Positions 1 to 37,305 of a stretch of 37,305 nt of DNA are shown here, one piece after another (within the stretch, counting starts at the first letter, position 1; every line of letters starts with the position of its first letter). Made by a program: the position numbers and the translations under genes. Source of the stretch: a virus; the IMG/VR virus record IMGVR_UViG_3300002061_000001; one strand, written 5' to 3'. The notes under the pieces are model-generated. The model saw only the letters and a program-made list of their open reading frames with translations, did no database searches and was not told the DNA's origin.

Positions 1-49
1 AGGCTCTATCTGTTGCCCTAAGTATCATAAAAGAGACTAAGGCGACCGA
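1..49. repeat. Terminal direct repeat, copy 1 (identical to 37257-37305). Either a circular-closure overlap of the assembly or terminal redundancy.
   Basis: Read directly: aggctctatctgttgccctaagtatcataaaagagactaaggcgaccga occurs at both window ends. Confidence 0.95.
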
Positions 50-7275: not shown

Positions 7276-7305
7276 GCAAGCACCCCTTGCCCCGTTTAAC
7301 TATAA

Positions 7306-7330
7306 CCCCGCCTCGTGCGGGGCTTTTTTT
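7306..7330 (+). terminator. Rho-independent terminator ending the early/middle operon.
   Basis: CCCCGC-ctcgt-GCGGGG stem-loop followed by C and T7 (7324-7330). Confidence 0.8.
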
Positions 7331-7408
7331 GAGAGGCGCGACACCCCCGAGAAAAGGCCAAGAGACACGAGACGGGCACAATAAAAGCATAGGTATTTAA
7401 TCCTATTA

Positions 7409-7438
7409 TAGACATAGTCGATATTTTAGGGGTATAAT
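7409..7438 (+). promoter_or_regulatory. Promoter of the packaging/structural (late) operon: TAGACA-18 nt-TATAAT.
   Basis: TAGACA 7409-7414 and perfect TATAAT 7433-7438, 36 nt upstream of the terS ATG and downstream of the terminator. Confidence 0.6.
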
Positions 7439-7473
7439 GACGAATACTTTACCCCCTATAAAAAGAGGATTCA

Positions 7474-21950: not shown

Positions 21951-23221
21951 GCCTACCTTACCCGAATTATCAGATCTTTTTTACCCCGCTCGTGCGCCCT
22001 AATGTTTACGGCGACACGTTGAACGTGACCAAAGACATTGATATGACTGATTTTATCAGATCGGGCGGCTTACAAAGTATCAGTCAACAGGTCGACGACG
22101 GCGATTACGATATAGGCATATTCACGTTCGGCGACATAACGCTCAACGGTATCAATATCGGCCGCAAGTTTAATGACGGACGTGATGCACTCTCGGTCTT
22201 TCCGTACACGAGAGACCTATGCAAGGTCGAGGTGCGCCTCTATGACGACGAGGGCGGCTATACGGTGAGATTTAGAGGTCTGGTTGATGAACAGGCAACA
22301 CGTGAGGACATAGAAAACGATCGTATTCGTCTCAAGGTTCTCTCAATGGATTCGGTTCTTGGTCGCGTTGAGGTGACGGGCGGCGCTGTATCAACAAACG
22401 ACAGCTTTTCTCTTGCGATCAAAAAGGTTTTAAATGTCCCTGAGATCACAAATATTCTCAATTACGACGAGAGCAATATCGACGTTGATTTTGACGCGGC
22501 CGTTGACAATGGTGATTTCTTTACAGCGATAACCGTTAAGGCGGCGCTTGATGATCTCTTGCTTGCGTCGAACTCAATTTTAATAATCGATAAAAATGAT
22601 AACATTATTGTAAAATCAAGGGTCGAAGATCGTCGGGTTTTTGTCTTGCATGGTCGCGGCGATTATTACGGCCGTGAAAATATTATCTCGATCACCGAAT
22701 CAAACGACGGCCGACAGCGAGCTTTTTCGGCTATATCGGTGAATGATATTGAGGTCGCAAATGACGATTGGATTGATGAATATGGGTATCGTCAAAAGTC
22801 TATCTCTCTCGATTTTATCGATAACAACGATACGATCAAAGCGGTTGCGGGCAACATTTTGGATAACTTTAAAGTGCCAAAGCCTGAGCTCAAAGTTAAG
22901 GCTCTCGCAAAAGACCTCAAGGATATTGAGCTTTTAGATACGGTCAAACTATACTATGATTATCGTGTTGCGCCGTATGTTGGCGACACTTTGCCTCTTG
23001 CGGGTCAGGTGCTTGCGGGTCAGTTTACGGCGGCGCGTTCTTTTGGGTCTCGCCGAATTTTGCCCTCGCAAAAGTGGAAAGTTATCGAGATCGAAGAGAG
23101 AGCCTCTCAATCTGAGATCACTCTCAAGCTCAGGCTTAGCGGCAACACGACGGCCGACGGTTATTTTATCGGCTTTGATGACGGCTATTTTTTTAACGAC
23201 GAGACAGGGTTTTCAGCATGA
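21947..23221 (+). CDS. Tail tip/hub protein candidate.
   Basis: 424 aa. TTG start overlapping the upstream TGA (TTGA), with gtgaggtg upstream. Assigned by position after the distal tail protein. Confidence 0.55.
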   Translation: MSLPYPNYQIFFTPLVRPNVYGDTLNVTKDIDMTDFIRSGGLQSISQQVDDGDYDIGIFTFGDITLNGINIGRKFNDGRDALSVFPYTRDLCKVEVRLYDDEGGYTVRFRGLVDEQATREDIENDRIRLKVLSMDSVLGRVEVTGGAVSTNDSFSLAIKKVLNVPEITNILNYDESNIDVDFDAAVDNGDFFTAITVKAALDDLLLASNSILIIDKNDNIIVKSRVEDRRVFVLHGRGDYYGRENIISITESNDGRQRAFSAISVNDIEVANDDWIDEYGYRQKSISLDFIDNNDTIKAVAGNILDNFKVPKPELKVKALAKDLKDIELLDTVKLYYDYRVAPYVGDTLPLAGQVLAGQFTAARSFGSRRILPSQKWKVIEIEERASQSEITLKLRLSGNTTADGYFIGFDDGYFFNDETGFSA

Positions 23222-30405: not shown

Positions 30406-30435
30406 ATAATATATTGATATAGTCAATAAGGTCAA
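30406..30435 (-). promoter_or_regulatory. Internal leftward promoter candidate: TTGACC-18 nt-TATTAT. It overlaps a copy of the conserved 16-mer.
   Basis: Minus strand reads aatagTTGACCttattgactatatcaataTATTATacatg, upstream of the erf RBS aaagg. Confidence 0.45.
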
Positions 30436-31695: not shown

Positions 31696-31735
31696 TTGAC
31701 TGTTCTTATAATATTGATAATATAGATAATGTCAA
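31696..31735. promoter_or_regulatory. Overlapping divergent promoters. Rightward TTGACT(31696-31701)-16 nt-TAATAT(31718-31723). Leftward TTGACA(31735-31730)-16 nt-TATTAT(31713-31708).
   Basis: Hexamers read directly on both strands in the 88-nt gap between divergent starts at 31668 (-) and 31757 (+). Confidence 0.55.
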
Positions 31736-31756
31736 TAACAAAAAGGAATTAAGAAA

Positions 31757-32223: not shown

Positions 32224-32621
32224 TGCACAAGATTGTTTTGCCTTTTCCGCCTTGGTCTTTGTCGCCGAACGCACGAAACGACAGGCGCGGCATGACAAAA
32301 ACGCGCAAGGGCTATAAATTCATATGCGCGGGGTTGGCTCGTAATCTTAAAATAAGCCTCGACAAGAAGCCCGTCGCGATTGCAGTGCTTTTTTACCCGC
32401 CAAAATTAAACGTCGATCTTGATAACTGCCTCGCGGCCGCAAAGAGCGGTCTTGACGGTGTTGCTATAGGACTCGGCGTTGATGATAAATTTTTCAAACC
32501 CATCATAATTGACATTGTTGAGAGGGACTCACCGCATGGCCGAGTTGAGGTTTATATCGACAATGTTGACATTGTCGATAATTCGTTTAATAATCTCATA
32601 ACGAAAATGATAAGGACGTGA
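32223..32621 (+). CDS. rusA: RusA-family Holliday junction resolvase.
   Basis: PPWSLSPNAR..., VDLDNCLAAAKSGLDGVAIGLGVDDKFF (the D.DN...K...D...DD catalytic motif). ATG 32223 overlaps TGA. Confidence 0.75.
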   Translation: MHKIVLPFPPWSLSPNARNDRRGMTKTRKGYKFICAGLARNLKISLDKKPVAIAVLFYPPKLNVDLDNCLAAAKSGLDGVAIGLGVDDKFFKPIIIDIVERDSPHGRVEVYIDNVDIVDNSFNNLITKMIRT

Positions 32622-33837: not shown

Positions 33838-34506
33838 TTGAAAGATAAATCTAAAAACGACGGTTATGTATCTATACATAGATGCTTGCACAAAGAGCCT
33901 ATCTGGCTCGCTGAGCCGTTCTCTCGTGCTCAGGCATGGATTGACCTCATAATGCTCGCAAATTACAAGGCGGGCTATATACGGATTAAAGGCGAGCGTG
34001 TTGATTTACAGCGCGGCGAGTGCGGGTGGTCAAAGCTCAAACTCTCAAAGCGTTGGAAGTGGTCGAGAGGCAAGACTGAACGCTTTTTAAACGAACTCAA
34101 AAACGATCAATGGATAGAACTCAAGACGGGACACCGCACGACGGTCATTAAGATATTGGAATATAACGATTTTCAGACTTCGCAGGACAAGAGACAGGAC
34201 AACAGACGGGGCAACAAACAGGACAACAGACAGGACACTAACAATAAAGATAATAAAAATAATAAACCCCCCTTACCCCCCAAGGGGGCAGATGTTTCTA
34301 AAACTTTGTTTTCGATAAAAAAGGAATTGTCGGCCGATGGTATTGAGCTCGCAAAACAGAAATCGCCGCAATGGGACGTTTATGCCCTCATGGAAGAATA
34401 CGACAAATGGGTAAATAAAGACCCCGATAACCGAAAGCCAAGGAGCGCTAACATAGCGTTTCCGTATTGGTGCGAATCATTCACGAAAGGAGTGCCCCCG
34501 AGATGA
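33838..34506 (+). CDS. Replication initiator (lambda O-like/DnaD-type winged helix N-terminal domain).
   Basis: TTG start 5 nt after gaaagaagagg. WLAEPFSRAQAWIDLIMLANYKAGYIRIKGERVDLQRGECGWSKLKLSKRWKWSRGKTERFLNEL is the common phage initiator wHTH pattern. The linker is encoded by the iterons. Confidence 0.7.
   Translation: MKDKSKNDGYVSIHRCLHKEPIWLAEPFSRAQAWIDLIMLANYKAGYIRIKGERVDLQRGECGWSKLKLSKRWKWSRGKTERFLNELKNDQWIELKTGHRTTVIKILEYNDFQTSQDKRQDNRRGNKQDNRQDTNNKDNKNNKPPLPPKGADVSKTLFSIKKELSADGIELAKQKSPQWDVYALMEEYDKWVNKDPDNRKPRSANIAFPYWCESFTKGVPPR
34183..34242 (+). repeat. Five tandem 12-bp direct repeats (iterons), consensus CAGGACAACAGA.
   Basis: CAGGACAAGAGA / CAGGACAACAGA / CGGGGCAACAAA / CAGGACAACAGA / CAGGACACTAAC, read directly. 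Confidence 0.85.
34183..34288 (+). other. Candidate origin of replication inside the initiator gene: iterons, 24-bp A/T block (34243-34266), then a C6/C6/G5 inverted repeat (34267-34288).
   Basis: Same order of elements as lambda ori within gene O (established architecture). The elements were read directly. Confidence 0.6.
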
Positions 34507-34841
34507 TCAGACAACCGAAAATTGAAAAACGTGTTGAGCTGTATAGCTTGGACGCTGAGACCCTTAACGGCTACACCACTGCCAAGAGACACCGACTAGC
34601 GCGAGAGTATTTTGAGATGATGCTCGCTGATCTGTCGTTTGGCAAAGGTGAGATAATCAGTCGGCGACGTGATTCGTATGTCGTTGATCGCCGCCAATAT
34701 ATCGCGACCGTTATGAGCAATGTCGGGTTTTCGTGTGTTTCTATTGGCCTCGCAATGTCGCGGGATAGCACGTCGATACACCATCTTTTGAAAAAAAGAA
34801 AAAAAGAATTTGACTATATCGACATAATAGATAATAAATGA
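34503..34841 (+). CDS. DnaA domain-IV (DnaA-box-binding HTH)-only protein.
   Basis: ATG 34503 overlaps the initiator TGA (ATGA), RBS aaaggag. ISRRRDSYVVDRRQYIATVMSNVGFSCVSIGLAMSRDSTSIHHLLKK parallels DnaA sKRRsr.vv.pRQiAMyL.....Slp.IG..fg.RDHtTVlHa.rK. Confidence 0.7.
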   Translation: MIRQPKIEKRVELYSLDAETLNGYTTAKRHRLAREYFEMMLADLSFGKGEIISRRRDSYVVDRRQYIATVMSNVGFSCVSIGLAMSRDSTSIHHLLKKRKKEFDYIDIIDNK

Positions 34842-34956
34842 ATAACCAAATAGATCGAGCCGCCCTGATAGACGGGCTTCGATCTCGGGTTTGTCTATCG
34901 CGTAAGGTTACGCGCTAAGCTGAAACTTTGTAACCTGACACCGATAAGATCGGTAT

Positions 34957-34994
34957 GAGGGGCGGGCTTGTGAAGCCGCTCGCCTCTCGCTTTT
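34957..34994 (+). terminator. Imperfect GC-rich hairpin followed by TCGCTTTT. Terminator-like.
   Basis: GAGGGGCGGGCTT-gtg-AAGCCGCTCGCCTC with bulges, then tcgcttttaaaa. Confidence 0.4.
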
Positions 34995-35013
34995 AAAATT
35001 TAACGAGGACGAC

Positions 35014-35591: not shown

Positions 35592-36782
35592 ATGACAGAT
35601 ATTCAAGACGAAAGCACCGCTCTCATAGCGGTCGAGACTTTAAACCCGATCGAGGTTTTTAGCACAAAGGGCGGGCTTGACCCGATTATCGAAAAAATTA
35701 AAGAGCGTGTCGAGGCGCAAGATTTTGATATTACGACCGATCAAGGCCGTAAAAATATCGGCTCTTATGCTCGCAAGATTGGCTCAAGCAAAAAGAAGCT
35801 CGAGAGCATGGCTTTAGAGCTGACTCAAGGTTGGCGCGACAAGGTCGACGCTGTGAATGTTGAGAAAAAGCGCATGATCAGCGAGTTTGATGCGCTGAGA
35901 GATAAGATCAAAAAACCTCTCGATGAATACAATGCAGAACAAGACCGATTAAAAGCTGTCGAGCAAGAGGCTCTTGATAAACTGGCCGCTGTTCGATCAT
36001 ATATCGAGCGTGAGCCCTCTAATGCAAATCGGACGGCCGAGGCTATCAAAACAGCGTTAAATCTATCAGGCGAGCTTTATGAGGGTTTTAAGTGGAGCGA
36101 GGATTTTATCGATAAAGCCAAGGTGCAACACGATAAAAATATCGACGCTCTAACTGTCGCGCTCGCGTCTCAAGAGCAATATGAGAAAGATCATGCTGAA
36201 CTCGCTGAGCTGAGAGAGGCTAAGGCTAAAAAAGAAGCGGCTGAGAAAAAGGCCGAAGCTGAAAAGGCTGAGAAAGCTCGCGCCGAGCAAGAGCGTAAGG
36301 ACGGTCACGAGGCTGTTATTGCTCAGATGCTCAGTCTCTCAACAGCCGAAAATGTAAGCATAACTCACTCGGTGCAAGCGGGCGAGTGGCTCGATAAACT
36401 AAGCAGGGTTTTTAGCCGCGATTGGGACGAATACCGAGAACGAGCCTCAAAGGTTTATGAGCAAATTAAATCTGAGCTTGAGGGCAAAAAGCTAAGCCTT
36501 GAAAAAGCCGAGGCTGATTTTAGAGATCAGGTTGCAAAGGAACAGGCTGAAAAAGCTGTTGCCGCCGAGCGCGAGCGCGTTGCGAAAGAGAAAATAAAGG
36601 CCGAAGAGATTGAGGCAAAGAGAGCGGCCGACCTCGAGAACAGGGTGAATATTGAGGTGCAAGTTATTGACGATATTATGATGCGTCTCGGGCTAAATAG
36701 CGTGGAGTCTCGTAACGTAATTTCGCAAGCGGTCGAGGCTATCGGTTCGGGCGATATTCCTAACATAAAAATCACATATTAA
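35592..36782 (+). CDS. Long coiled-coil protein (DUF1351-like?), function unknown.
   Basis: 396 aa, Ala/Glu/Lys-rich heptad-like sequence. The N-terminal region vaguely resembles DUF1351 proteins that accompany phage recombination genes. Confidence 0.6.
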   Translation: MTDIQDESTALIAVETLNPIEVFSTKGGLDPIIEKIKERVEAQDFDITTDQGRKNIGSYARKIGSSKKKLESMALELTQGWRDKVDAVNVEKKRMISEFDALRDKIKKPLDEYNAEQDRLKAVEQEALDKLAAVRSYIEREPSNANRTAEAIKTALNLSGELYEGFKWSEDFIDKAKVQHDKNIDALTVALASQEQYEKDHAELAELREAKAKKEAAEKKAEAEKAEKARAEQERKDGHEAVIAQMLSLSTAENVSITHSVQAGEWLDKLSRVFSRDWDEYRERASKVYEQIKSELEGKKLSLEKAEADFRDQVAKEQAEKAVAAERERVAKEKIKAEEIEAKRAADLENRVNIEVQVIDDIMMRLGLNSVESRNVISQAVEAIGSGDIPNIKITY

Positions 36783-36805: not shown

Positions 36806-37305
36806 ATGGCTTTAAAAACTATGGAACGATTCGCCAAGTCAGGCGGCAAGAGCAAGCTCGACATACTCAAGCGATTTTATTGCGACGGCGATAAGGCGAC
36901 CGTGATTGACTTTGATTTCGCTATCGAGACAAAAAGCAACGTGAGCAAGGGGGTGTATTACGCCGAGGGGTACTCTAAAGGGTTTCGTATAGCGACGTAT
37001 GACAAGCCCGAGGAAGCGCCAAAAATGGACAGGGGCGAAAGCGTCCTCGCTGTCGTTGATCTTGACGAGGAAAAGATTGAGGCTCTTGCATGGGTCGCAA
37101 AGGCTGTCTCAACTGATCAAACTAGGTATTACCTGAACGGCGTTTGTTTTGATGGCGACAAGATCGTCGCAACCGACGGCCATAGATTACACCTTATGCA
37201 AGACGACGAGTTGACGGCTTGGGTCGGTAAGAAAGAGACTTTAATATTGCCGCGTGAGGCTCTATCTGTTGCCCTAAGTATCATAAAAGAGACTAAGGCG
37301 ACCGA
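36806..37305 (+). CDS. dnaN: DNA polymerase III beta (sliding clamp) homologue, N-terminal part (3'-truncated by the window edge; continues at base 50).
   Basis: ATG 36806 after aagaaagagagac. Open to the window end. TRYYLNGVCFDGDKIVATDGHRLHL is the hallmark clamp domain-II motif (RYYLNG...VATDGHRL). Confidence 0.8.
   Translation, partial: MALKTMERFAKSGGKSKLDILKRFYCDGDKATVIDFDFAIETKSNVSKGVYYAEGYSKGFRIATYDKPEEAPKMDRGESVLAVVDLDEEKIEALAWVAKAVSTDQTRYYLNGVCFDGDKIVATDGHRLHLMQDDELTAWVGKKETLILPREALSVALSIIKETKAT
37257..37305. repeat. Terminal direct repeat, copy 2 (identical to 1-49).
   Basis: Same 49-mer as bases 1-49. The reading frame of the clamp gene is continuous across the join. Confidence 0.95.

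Follow-up and report, generated by a model that had tools for sequence, protein, structure and literature searches.

The window described here is the complete stretch of DNA, 37,305 nucleotides (nt) long, of the IMG/VR virus record IMGVR_UViG_3300002061_000001. Directly behind the gene of an initiator-like protein, it carries an open reading frame (ORF) for a protein of 112 amino acids (aa) that, as judged from sequence comparisons, is a divergent module of the type of domain IV of DnaA, the part of the bacterial initiator that binds DnaA boxes. The homology is visible only through the relatives of the protein. The gene and its translational signal are as follows.

34503–34841, + strand: gene of a stand-alone, DnaA-domain-IV-like protein of 112 aa (ORF, homologues, profile and predicted model)
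34486–34492, + strand: Shine-Dalgarno sequence AAAGGAG, 10 nt 5' of the ATG (read from the sequence)

The ATG at 34503–34505 shares the tetranucleotide ATGA with the TGA stop codon (34504–34506) of the preceding 222-aa ORF (33838–34506), so that the overlap with the initiator gene given in an initial annotation of this locus agrees in both coordinates and sequence. The translational coupling claimed there carries little weight, since a 4-nt overlap of the ATGA type is routine in this DNA and occurs at 13 of the 53 adjacent ORF pairs on the + strand of the window. The mechanical ORF list also holds a longer form of the same frame that starts with TTG at 34467 and encodes 124 aa. The 112-aa product is a gene call on three independent metagenome contigs, and ORF 34503–34841 is a real gene.

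Searches with the 112-aa protein alone gave no Pfam match at E ≤ 1, including PF08299 (Bac_DnaA_C, hereafter DnaA_C), no match in PHROGs or NCBIfam, and no phmmer match to PDB sequences at E ≤ 10. A tblastn comparison with 50,697 phage records found no close homologue, and a word-indexed search of 5.8 billion proteins returned nothing beyond the query. When 1.84 billion representatives were searched exhaustively with phmmer, 23 matches were retrieved; one of them, P0004 (558 aa, repetitive), was dropped as spurious, and the others are 73–183 aa long, with library-wide E-values of 6e-10 to 9e-4. The consensus among these relatives reads ilSrRRD..LVD.RQ.IA..L...GYSYP.IG.VMNRDHTSI.HL, and PF08299 is matched by 19 of the 22 members of alignment A1. 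Related loci scored 75.5, 56.9, and 40.4 bits against PF08299, whose gathering cut-off is 31.5 bits. When the family profile was compared with the PDB, it retrieved DnaA only (1j1v at 1.6e-7, then 3pvp, 2hcb, and 1l8q), and its alignment with Escherichia coli domain IV by hhalign had a probability of 96.7% (E = 4e-10). The 112-aa protein itself shows 32% identity with residues 373–467 of E. coli DnaA over 66 columns (E = 1e-4 in a single, pre-specified BLASTP comparison). All its residues after the first ~33 align to DnaA domain IV.

The predicted structure points to the same fold. With the alignment as input, AlphaFold2 modeled the 112-aa protein with a predicted local distance difference test score (pLDDT) of 85 and a predicted template modeling score (pTM) of 0.77, including a predicted helix at residues 89–98; the model from the single sequence (pLDDT 50) was of no use. 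The best PDB matches of the model in Foldseek are 3pvp, 1j1v, and 3r8f, all of them DnaA, with weak E-values (0.4–2.0), and the match to 1j1v has a root-mean-square deviation of 2.5 Å for 65 columns. The domain IV signature recognized in the initial annotation is thus borne out by the relatives, the profile, hhalign, and the AlphaFold2 model; the comparison with PF08299 that it proposed as a check fails for the protein directly and succeeds for the relatives. It was also right that the protein has no AAA+ domain: neither an AAA+ domain, a domain I, a Walker A motif, nor any ATPase family match is present in the 112 residues, a size that leaves no room for them, and no loader family was matched in Pfam, PHROGs, or NCBIfam. 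As domains III (AAA+) and I are missing, oligomerization, ATP hydrolysis, DNA melting, and contact with DnaB are beyond its capacity. The 112-aa protein is therefore neither an initiator nor a helicase loader.

The two segments that correspond to the DNA-contacting parts of DnaA are encoded at the following positions.

34662–34670, + strand: codons of the basic loop R54-R55-R56, in which R56 corresponds to DnaA R399 (alignments)
34761–34796, + strand: codons of R87–K98 (RDSTSIHHLLKK), start and body of the recognition helix of the helix-turn-helix (HTH), corresponding to DnaA R432–K443 (alignments; AlphaFold2 helix 89–98)

The full motif of the protein is S53-RRR-DSYVV-D-RRQ...GFSCVSIG-LAMS-RDSTSIHHL, i.e., SRRRDSYVVDRRQ...GFSCVSIGLAMSRDSTSIHHL. 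It was reported correctly in the initial annotation except for the distance between IG and RD, which is four residues rather than five; the four-residue spacing is also that of Mycobacterium tuberculosis DnaA and of the rest of the phage family. In E. coli DnaA numbering, the residues of interest compare as follows.

R54, R55, R56: K397, R398, R399; kept (R56 = R399)
R64, Q65: R407, Q408; kept
C78: L422; changed
V79: P423; changed
R87, D88: R432, D433; kept
S89: H434; changed
T90: T435; kept
H94: H439; kept

Fujikawa et al. (2003) reportedly described P423, D433, H434, and H439 as contacts to the DnaA box. In DnaA, R399 reads the TTA of the box in the minor groove, helix 434–451 reads TnCACA in the major groove, and the mutants R399A and T435M have lost box binding (PMC5742627). 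Both of these genetically validated residues are kept in the 112-aa protein, and two other contact positions are changed. Since His434 is replaced by Ser and Pro423 by Val, the specificity of the protein for a canonical box is uncertain. In comparison with DnaA domain IV (PF08299; E. coli DnaA 374–467, 1J1V; M. tuberculosis, 3PVP), the fold and the signature are the same, with equivalents of R399, R407, Q408, D433, T435, and H439; the differences are that the 112-aa protein is free-standing, that it has Ser, Val, and Cys in place of H434, P423, and L422, and that its phage is without DnaA boxes, as described below. The family consensus contains all the box-contact residues, with Pro at the P423 position in about half of the members and His at the H439 position in about three quarters, as counted by eye; by the same count, 18 of 22 members have Arg where DnaA has R399, and 17 of 21 relatives have RDH[TS]. 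At the R399 position, Glu is present in GafA (PMC9638019), and HdaB/GafY has no R399 (PMC7049699). As the family keeps base-contact residues that GafA and GafY do not, it is nearer to genuine DnaA than they are.

Scans of viral contigs, metagenomes, and genomes with the family yielded more than 90 loci, which after the removal of full-length DnaA comprise 84 small genes in 44 clusters at 70% identity. A scan of a genome collection with narrower alignments found one prophage only, a word-indexed search with the family alignment added little, and tblastn with the canonical member P0014 found no match among phage isolates. The relatives in the 44 clusters are located in early regions, surrounded by genes for methylases and for replication and recombination; their neighbors encode DUF1376 proteins (the commonest Pfam family), methylases, HNH and PD-(D/E)XK nucleases, RecT, ERF, Sak, SSB, and SNF2 helicases. 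In about 11 of the 44 clusters, an initiator-like gene adjoins the DnaA_C gene or lies at most two genes away on either side, as in the loci with a DUF1376-type or "primosomal" neighbor (L008, which also has an ATGA overlap, L011, L020, L025, L027, L048, and L071). This association is suggestive and is not clearly above the level of any early gene; with only about a quarter of its members beside an initiator, the family does not strictly depend on one. No ORF with a Walker A motif was found nearby in the several loci with both an initiator and a DnaA_C gene that were inspected.

Several relatives have additional domains. L028 and L032 (~190–196 aa) are fusions of an XRE-type HTH with DnaA_C, L020 has a second, C-terminal HTH that resembles sigma-r4 (read by eye), and L080, L091, and L097 (~190–208 aa) combine an N-terminal domain of unclear function (MKVYISGRITGL...) with DnaA_C. 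No initiator domain fused to DnaA_C was found in a "Rosetta stone" search among the relatives. The G+C content of the loci ranges from 36% to 61%, and the hosts of the family appear to range widely. The pattern IGxVMNRDH[TS] also retrieved full-length DnaA proteins of 435–467 aa (L058, L062, L066, L075, L079, L084, L086, and L096). The occurrence of MNRDH in some bacterial DnaA lineages hints, at the level of sequence, that the phage proteins may have been captured from host dnaA.

Proteins of this kind have been cataloged by annotation. The top 50 structural matches in BFVD are phage proteins of 80–200 aa annotated as "Chromosomal replication initiator, DnaA C-terminal", and some relatives match phrog_27829 ("DnaA-like replication initiation protein") and phrog_30669. 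These small phage proteins (BFVD/UniProt; 70–200 aa) consist of DnaA_C only and are of the same kind as the 112-aa protein; their names are based on homology, and the 112-aa protein differs from them in being too divergent for a direct PHROGs or Pfam match. It is a new, divergent member of this already cataloged class, for which the literature yielded no experimental study of any lytic or temperate phage member.

Upstream of the gene, the initiator-like protein and the repeats in its coding sequence are arranged as follows.

33838–34506, + strand: initiator-like protein of 222 aa with an N-terminal winged helix, a low-complexity linker, and a Trp-rich C-terminal tail (PHROGs, tblastn)
34183–34237: iterons, 4.6 copies of the 12-nt sequence CAGGACAACAGA, within the linker region of the initiator gene (repeat analysis)
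34243–34266: AT-rich tract beside the iterons (AATAAAAAT, 2.7 copies), a candidate unwinding element (repeat analysis)

The 222-aa protein matches phrog_2514 (3e-23) and phrog_186 (1.4e-16), described as "DnaD-like helicase loader / replication protein", and tblastn linked it to replication proteins in phages of Vibrio, Pseudoalteromonas, Bacillus, and Staphylococcus. It is also connected by BLAST to the DUF1376-type replication proteins that adjoin relatives of the 112-aa ORF. Initiators of marine Vibrio and Pseudoalteromonas phages are similar to it. In phage lambda, the origin is located within the initiator gene, and the iterons inside the initiator gene are here, too, presumably the phage origin. 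The "O-like" of the initial annotation thus holds for the architecture; the protein is not a homologue of lambda O. In Vibrio phage 1.167.O, the gene behind that of the initiator homologue (229 aa) overlaps it by 4 nt and encodes a 625-aa primase-helicase with Toprim and DnaB_C domains. The positional point made earlier, that a helicase loader would be expected behind the initiator, is accordingly sound, as the nearest initiator homologue has a primase-helicase in the slot of the 112-aa ORF. Lambda P, DnaC-type loaders, and T7-gp4-like primase-helicases share this slot and the stop-codon overlap with the 112-aa protein; the analogy is positional only, as the 112-aa protein has no homology to them, no ATPase, and no known helicase-binding surface. 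The hypothetical gene behind the initiator homologue in Vibrio phage F89 g1 was considered as a DnaA_C-like gene and is not one.

The first and last 49 nt of the window (1–49 and 37257–37305) are repeats of each other, indicating a circular assembly of 37,256 bp, so that the set of genes is complete. A sliding-clamp gene (PF02767) crosses the junction (36806–37305, then 50–497), and the listed ORF 225–497 is its C-terminal part. Upstream of the initiator gene, the + strand encodes a 59-aa ORF, GapR (PF10073), a RusA-like resolvase, an HNH endonuclease, and a DNA methyltransferase. Downstream of the 112-aa ORF lie genes for a DUF1353 protein, a 396-aa coiled-coil protein (phrog_1376), the sliding clamp, about 20 small ORFs, an RNase_T exonuclease, and the terminase genes. 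GapR, the clamp, and the DnaQ-like exonuclease had been named in the initial annotation, and all three were recovered as family matches (the exonuclease with PF00929). GapR is typical of alphaproteobacteria. The genome also carries ERF and a YqaJ exonuclease. The scanned ORFs of the early region matched no family of helicases, loaders, primases, or polymerases, most ORFs of the 7.5–28 kb part being unscanned; within that scope, the earlier statement that the genome has no polymerase, helicase, or primase holds. An integrase did not turn up in the searches run, which have the same scope, and the phage may be lytic or a plasmid-like prophage.

The transcription unit that ends with the 112-aa gene is bounded by the following two features, and a repeated element found at the first of them recurs elsewhere in the window.

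34842–35013, + strand: structured intergenic region that ends with a GC-rich hairpin and a U-rich run (fold z-score)
32555–32580: perfect 12 + 12 palindrome with a 2-nt spacer, TATCGACAATGT-TG-ACATTGTCGATA, 26 bp (repeat scan)
1428–1440, 7411–7423, 22811–22823, 30412–30428, 31721–31733, 32555–32580, 34821–34833, and 36102–36119: sites of the GACWTWRTCRATA element (pattern scan)

The 172-nt region at 34842–35013 contains several short hairpins and folds with a z-score of −3.28, none of 200 shuffled sequences folding as well; no Rfam family was found in the window, this region included. It probably terminates the unit of HNH, methyltransferase, initiator, and DnaA_C genes, and could be a terminator with additional regulatory structure or a small RNA. 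The unit would run from a promoter-like site near 32566 through these four genes to the hairpin near 34960–34990, and the 112-aa ORF is probably its last gene, on one transcript with the phage initiator. Elsewhere in the window, a near-consensus promoter, TAGACA-18-TATAAT, lies just 5' of the small terminase gene, behind a strong intrinsic terminator (CCCCGCCTCGTGCGGGGCTTTTTTT; both within 7300–7445); with its own promoter there, the late operon seems not to rely on read-through.

DnaA boxes are not enriched in the phage. TTWTNCACA does not occur in the window (2.5 expected), and TTATCCACA with at most one mismatch occurs seven times (5.9 expected). Across the 44 non-redundant related loci, the two patterns occur 21 and 65 times (17.9 and 54.8 expected), and a scan of 12 related loci likewise showed no enrichment. 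The initial annotation had envisaged phage DnaA boxes as targets and proposed a scan for them; the empty window and the flat counts at the 44 loci contradict it, and binding of the 112-aa protein to phage DnaA boxes was rejected on the results for the window, the 12 loci, and the 44 loci. As boxes are not enriched in these phages, any canonical-box targets of the proteins would lie in the host.

A different sequence is overrepresented. With at most one mismatch, GACWTWRTCRATA has 11 copies in the window against 0.52 expected, a count made with a pattern derived from the same data. Five promoter-like regions have this element of 13–16 bp in common, namely the late promoter (7411) and those at 1428, 30412, 31721, and 32568; it often supplies the −35-like TTGACA of such sites. 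One of the copies (34821) falls in the 3' end of the 112-aa ORF. It holds DnaA-box-like 9-mers with G at box position 6, e.g., TTATCGACA. The palindrome at 32555–32580 comprises two copies of the element with TTATCGACA-type 9-mers and overlaps a promoter-like site, TTGACA-17-AATAAT, located 5' of the HNH gene and of the block that ends with the 112-aa ORF. The GACWTWRTCRATA element is probably the operator of a phage regulator for early and late transcription. The "variant box" WTATYGACA (5 against 0.9 expected) was set aside as confounded, being post hoc and part of the longer, promoter-associated element with its partial dyad symmetry, and serves as a lead only. In the divergent early promoter region, three head-to-tail 9-mers, TTATTGACA-TTATCTATA-TTATCAATA, lie at 31712–31738 on the − strand, and TTATCWATA occurs three times against 0.43 expected. 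Each of the 9-mers matches the DnaA box at seven of nine positions, which is weak, and they are spaced at 9 bp, unlike the boxes of known DnaA arrays.

To our knowledge, GafY and the N-terminal part of GafA are the only characterized domain-IV-like proteins that are stand-alone or fused, and both are transcription activators of phage-derived genes. GafY (= HdaB, CCNA_01111) of Caulobacter has about 20 promoters as binding sites, requires IHF, and makes contact with sigma-70 (PMC9632790, PMC11150451), and the DnaA-like N-terminal domain of Rhodobacter GafA is required for the activation of the RcGTA promoters (PMC9638019). As small domain-IV-like modules in phage-derived elements, they offer the best functional analogy to the 112-aa protein, with which they were compared by way of their literature descriptions. 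They differ from it in being host genes of alphaproteobacterial gene transfer agents, whereas the 112-aa ORF is a phage early gene. The roseophage RDJL Phi 1 protein gp38, considered as a possible GafA homologue, has no similarity to the family. The initial annotation did not consider such a transcription activator, which weakens its reading. We tentatively favor the view, possible though short of likely, that the 112-aa protein is a phage-directed, site-specific DNA-binding regulator made together with the initiator. The module, with its connector helix, basic loop R54–R56, and HTH with a recognition helix that starts at R87-D88-S89-T90, would occupy specific duplex DNA sites in the manner of GafY and the GafA N-terminus, with the Arg loop reading the minor groove and the major groove read by the recognition helix. 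Phage promoters or the origin would thereby become more or less active, and the GACWTWRTCRATA element at the early and late promoter-like sites provides candidate targets. The fusions of relatives to HTH domains of transcription factors fit such a role, as do the kept equivalents of R399 and T435 and the fact that most relatives lie away from an initiator-like gene. Several points weigh against it. GafY and GafA act with a sigma-like partner (GafZ and the GafA C-terminus, respectively), whereas the 112-aa ORF is flanked by the initiator and DUF1353 genes, with no GafZ-like or sigma-like gene adjoining; near the 44 relatives, too, no sigma-like family is present among the Pfam families listed (the best 25 per listing). 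The 112-aa ORF lies ~10 kb upstream of the terminase genes. As for the targets, besides the circular derivation of its pattern, the GACWTWRTCRATA element shows partial dyad symmetry and overlaps with TTGACA hexamers of the −35 type; a different phage regulator, e.g., the 59-aa product of the gene that opens the rightward operon or a 78-aa HTH protein of the minus strand, could equally well use it as its operator. Finally, the family recurs in replication modules that contain neither a helicase nor a loader, a hint that it acts in replication and not in transcription, and the base-contact residues, including the Arg at the R399 position, are kept much better than in GafA and GafY, which argues for one universal target common to the family, e.g., the DnaA box of the host.

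That last point leads to a somewhat unlikely alternative, in which the protein is a decoy for host DnaA boxes. A dominant-negative domain IV would sit at oriC, at the dnaA promoter, and at DnaA-regulated genes such as nrdAB, so that host initiation is blocked or DnaA-controlled genes are de-repressed and replication resources are freed for the phage. The family mostly keeps the equivalents of R399, D433, H434, T435, and H439 and is closer to DnaA than GafA and GafY are (PMC9638019, PMC7049699); its wide apparent host range fits a universal target, and with boxes absent from the phage and not enriched at the 44 loci, a canonical target would be the host's. The ORF also occupies the primase-helicase slot in a phage whose scanned early region has no recognized helicase or loader, and several initiator-plus-DnaA_C loci have no Walker A ORF nearby. 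Prophage proteins that target DnaA, E. coli YfdR (PMC4776307) and Bacillus subtilis YqaH (bioRxiv 10.1101/2020.11.18.388090), provide a conceptual precedent, with the difference that these proteins, which are not homologous to DnaA, bind DnaA itself, whereas competition for DNA sites is proposed here. Yet recognition of the canonical box is doubtful with Ser and Val in place of H434 and P423, RDHT may be conserved in part for structural reasons and in part because of the way in which the relatives were found, and the XRE-type HTH fusions suit a transcription factor better. Replication could also be served at the phage origin itself: an accessory factor acting with the 222-aa initiator at the iterons might bind or bend DNA or contact the initiator and help in opening and in DnaB-DnaC recruitment, functionally replacing the missing loader. 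The position of the gene is in line with this, as it is the last gene of the initiator block, 240 bp downstream of the iterons, with a start that overlaps the initiator stop; so are the clusters with an initiator-like gene close by and the primase-helicase that follows homologous initiators elsewhere. Against this, an adjacency in a quarter of the clusters is about that of any early-region gene and 4-nt overlaps are generic; moreover, no box-like repeats lie beside the iterons, and no natural initiator–DnaA_C fusion was found. No surface that would bind a helicase or loader is known in domain IV, and DnaA contacts DnaB through domains I and III (PMC6127211), both of which are absent here; the recruitment of DnaA-dependent helicase loading suggested in the initial annotation falls for the same reason, and such an origin factor is distinctly unlikely. 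What stands of that first interpretation is the identity of the protein and its slot; phage boxes and helicase recruitment do not. It is highly improbable that the protein mimics domain IV toward host Hda, blocking the regulatory inactivation of DnaA so that the host over-initiates. Caulobacter HdaB, which consists of domain IV only, reportedly binds HdaA and brings about over-initiation (PMC7049699), but the HdaB phenotypes were later ascribed to gene transfer agent induction by the same protein, GafY (PMC9632790). The residue needed for the DnaA–Hda contact, L422 (PMC7049699), is Cys in the 112-aa protein and mostly Tyr in the family, and the host may be without Hda. A chance ORF or chance motif, as the lack of profile matches for the protein alone and of close homologues among the phage records might suggest, is scarcely credible in view of the homologues to E = 6e-10, the DnaA-specific profile, the confident AlphaFold2 model made with the alignment, and the good Shine-Dalgarno sequence; the phmmer, PF08299, PDB profile, and hhalign results effectively refute it.

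Free-standing DnaA domain IV proteins are common in uncultured phages, and their characterized relatives, GafY and GafA, control gene transfer agents. The 112-aa member stands out in that it lies beside an initiator with a presumptive internal origin, in a phage with no recognized helicase or loader, and keeps the Arg loop and the Thr on which box binding by DnaA depends. If it is merely another HTH regulator, the finding is an ordinary one. A more far-reaching proposal, which we consider speculative and unlikely, is that initiator-only phages carry a free DnaA domain IV as a dominant-negative decoy, which would occupy host boxes at oriC and at promoters under DnaA control, stop host initiation or rewire the DnaA regulon, and hand DnaB-DnaC and the replisome to the phage origin, its gene having replaced, in this lineage, a primase-helicase in the slot behind the initiator. 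If true, this would represent a novel way of taking over host replication, by mimicry of the domain with which the initiator binds DNA. The system lets one ask whether phage DnaA mimicry serves the phage's own promoters and origin or is directed against host DnaA, and also how initiator-only phages obtain their helicase.

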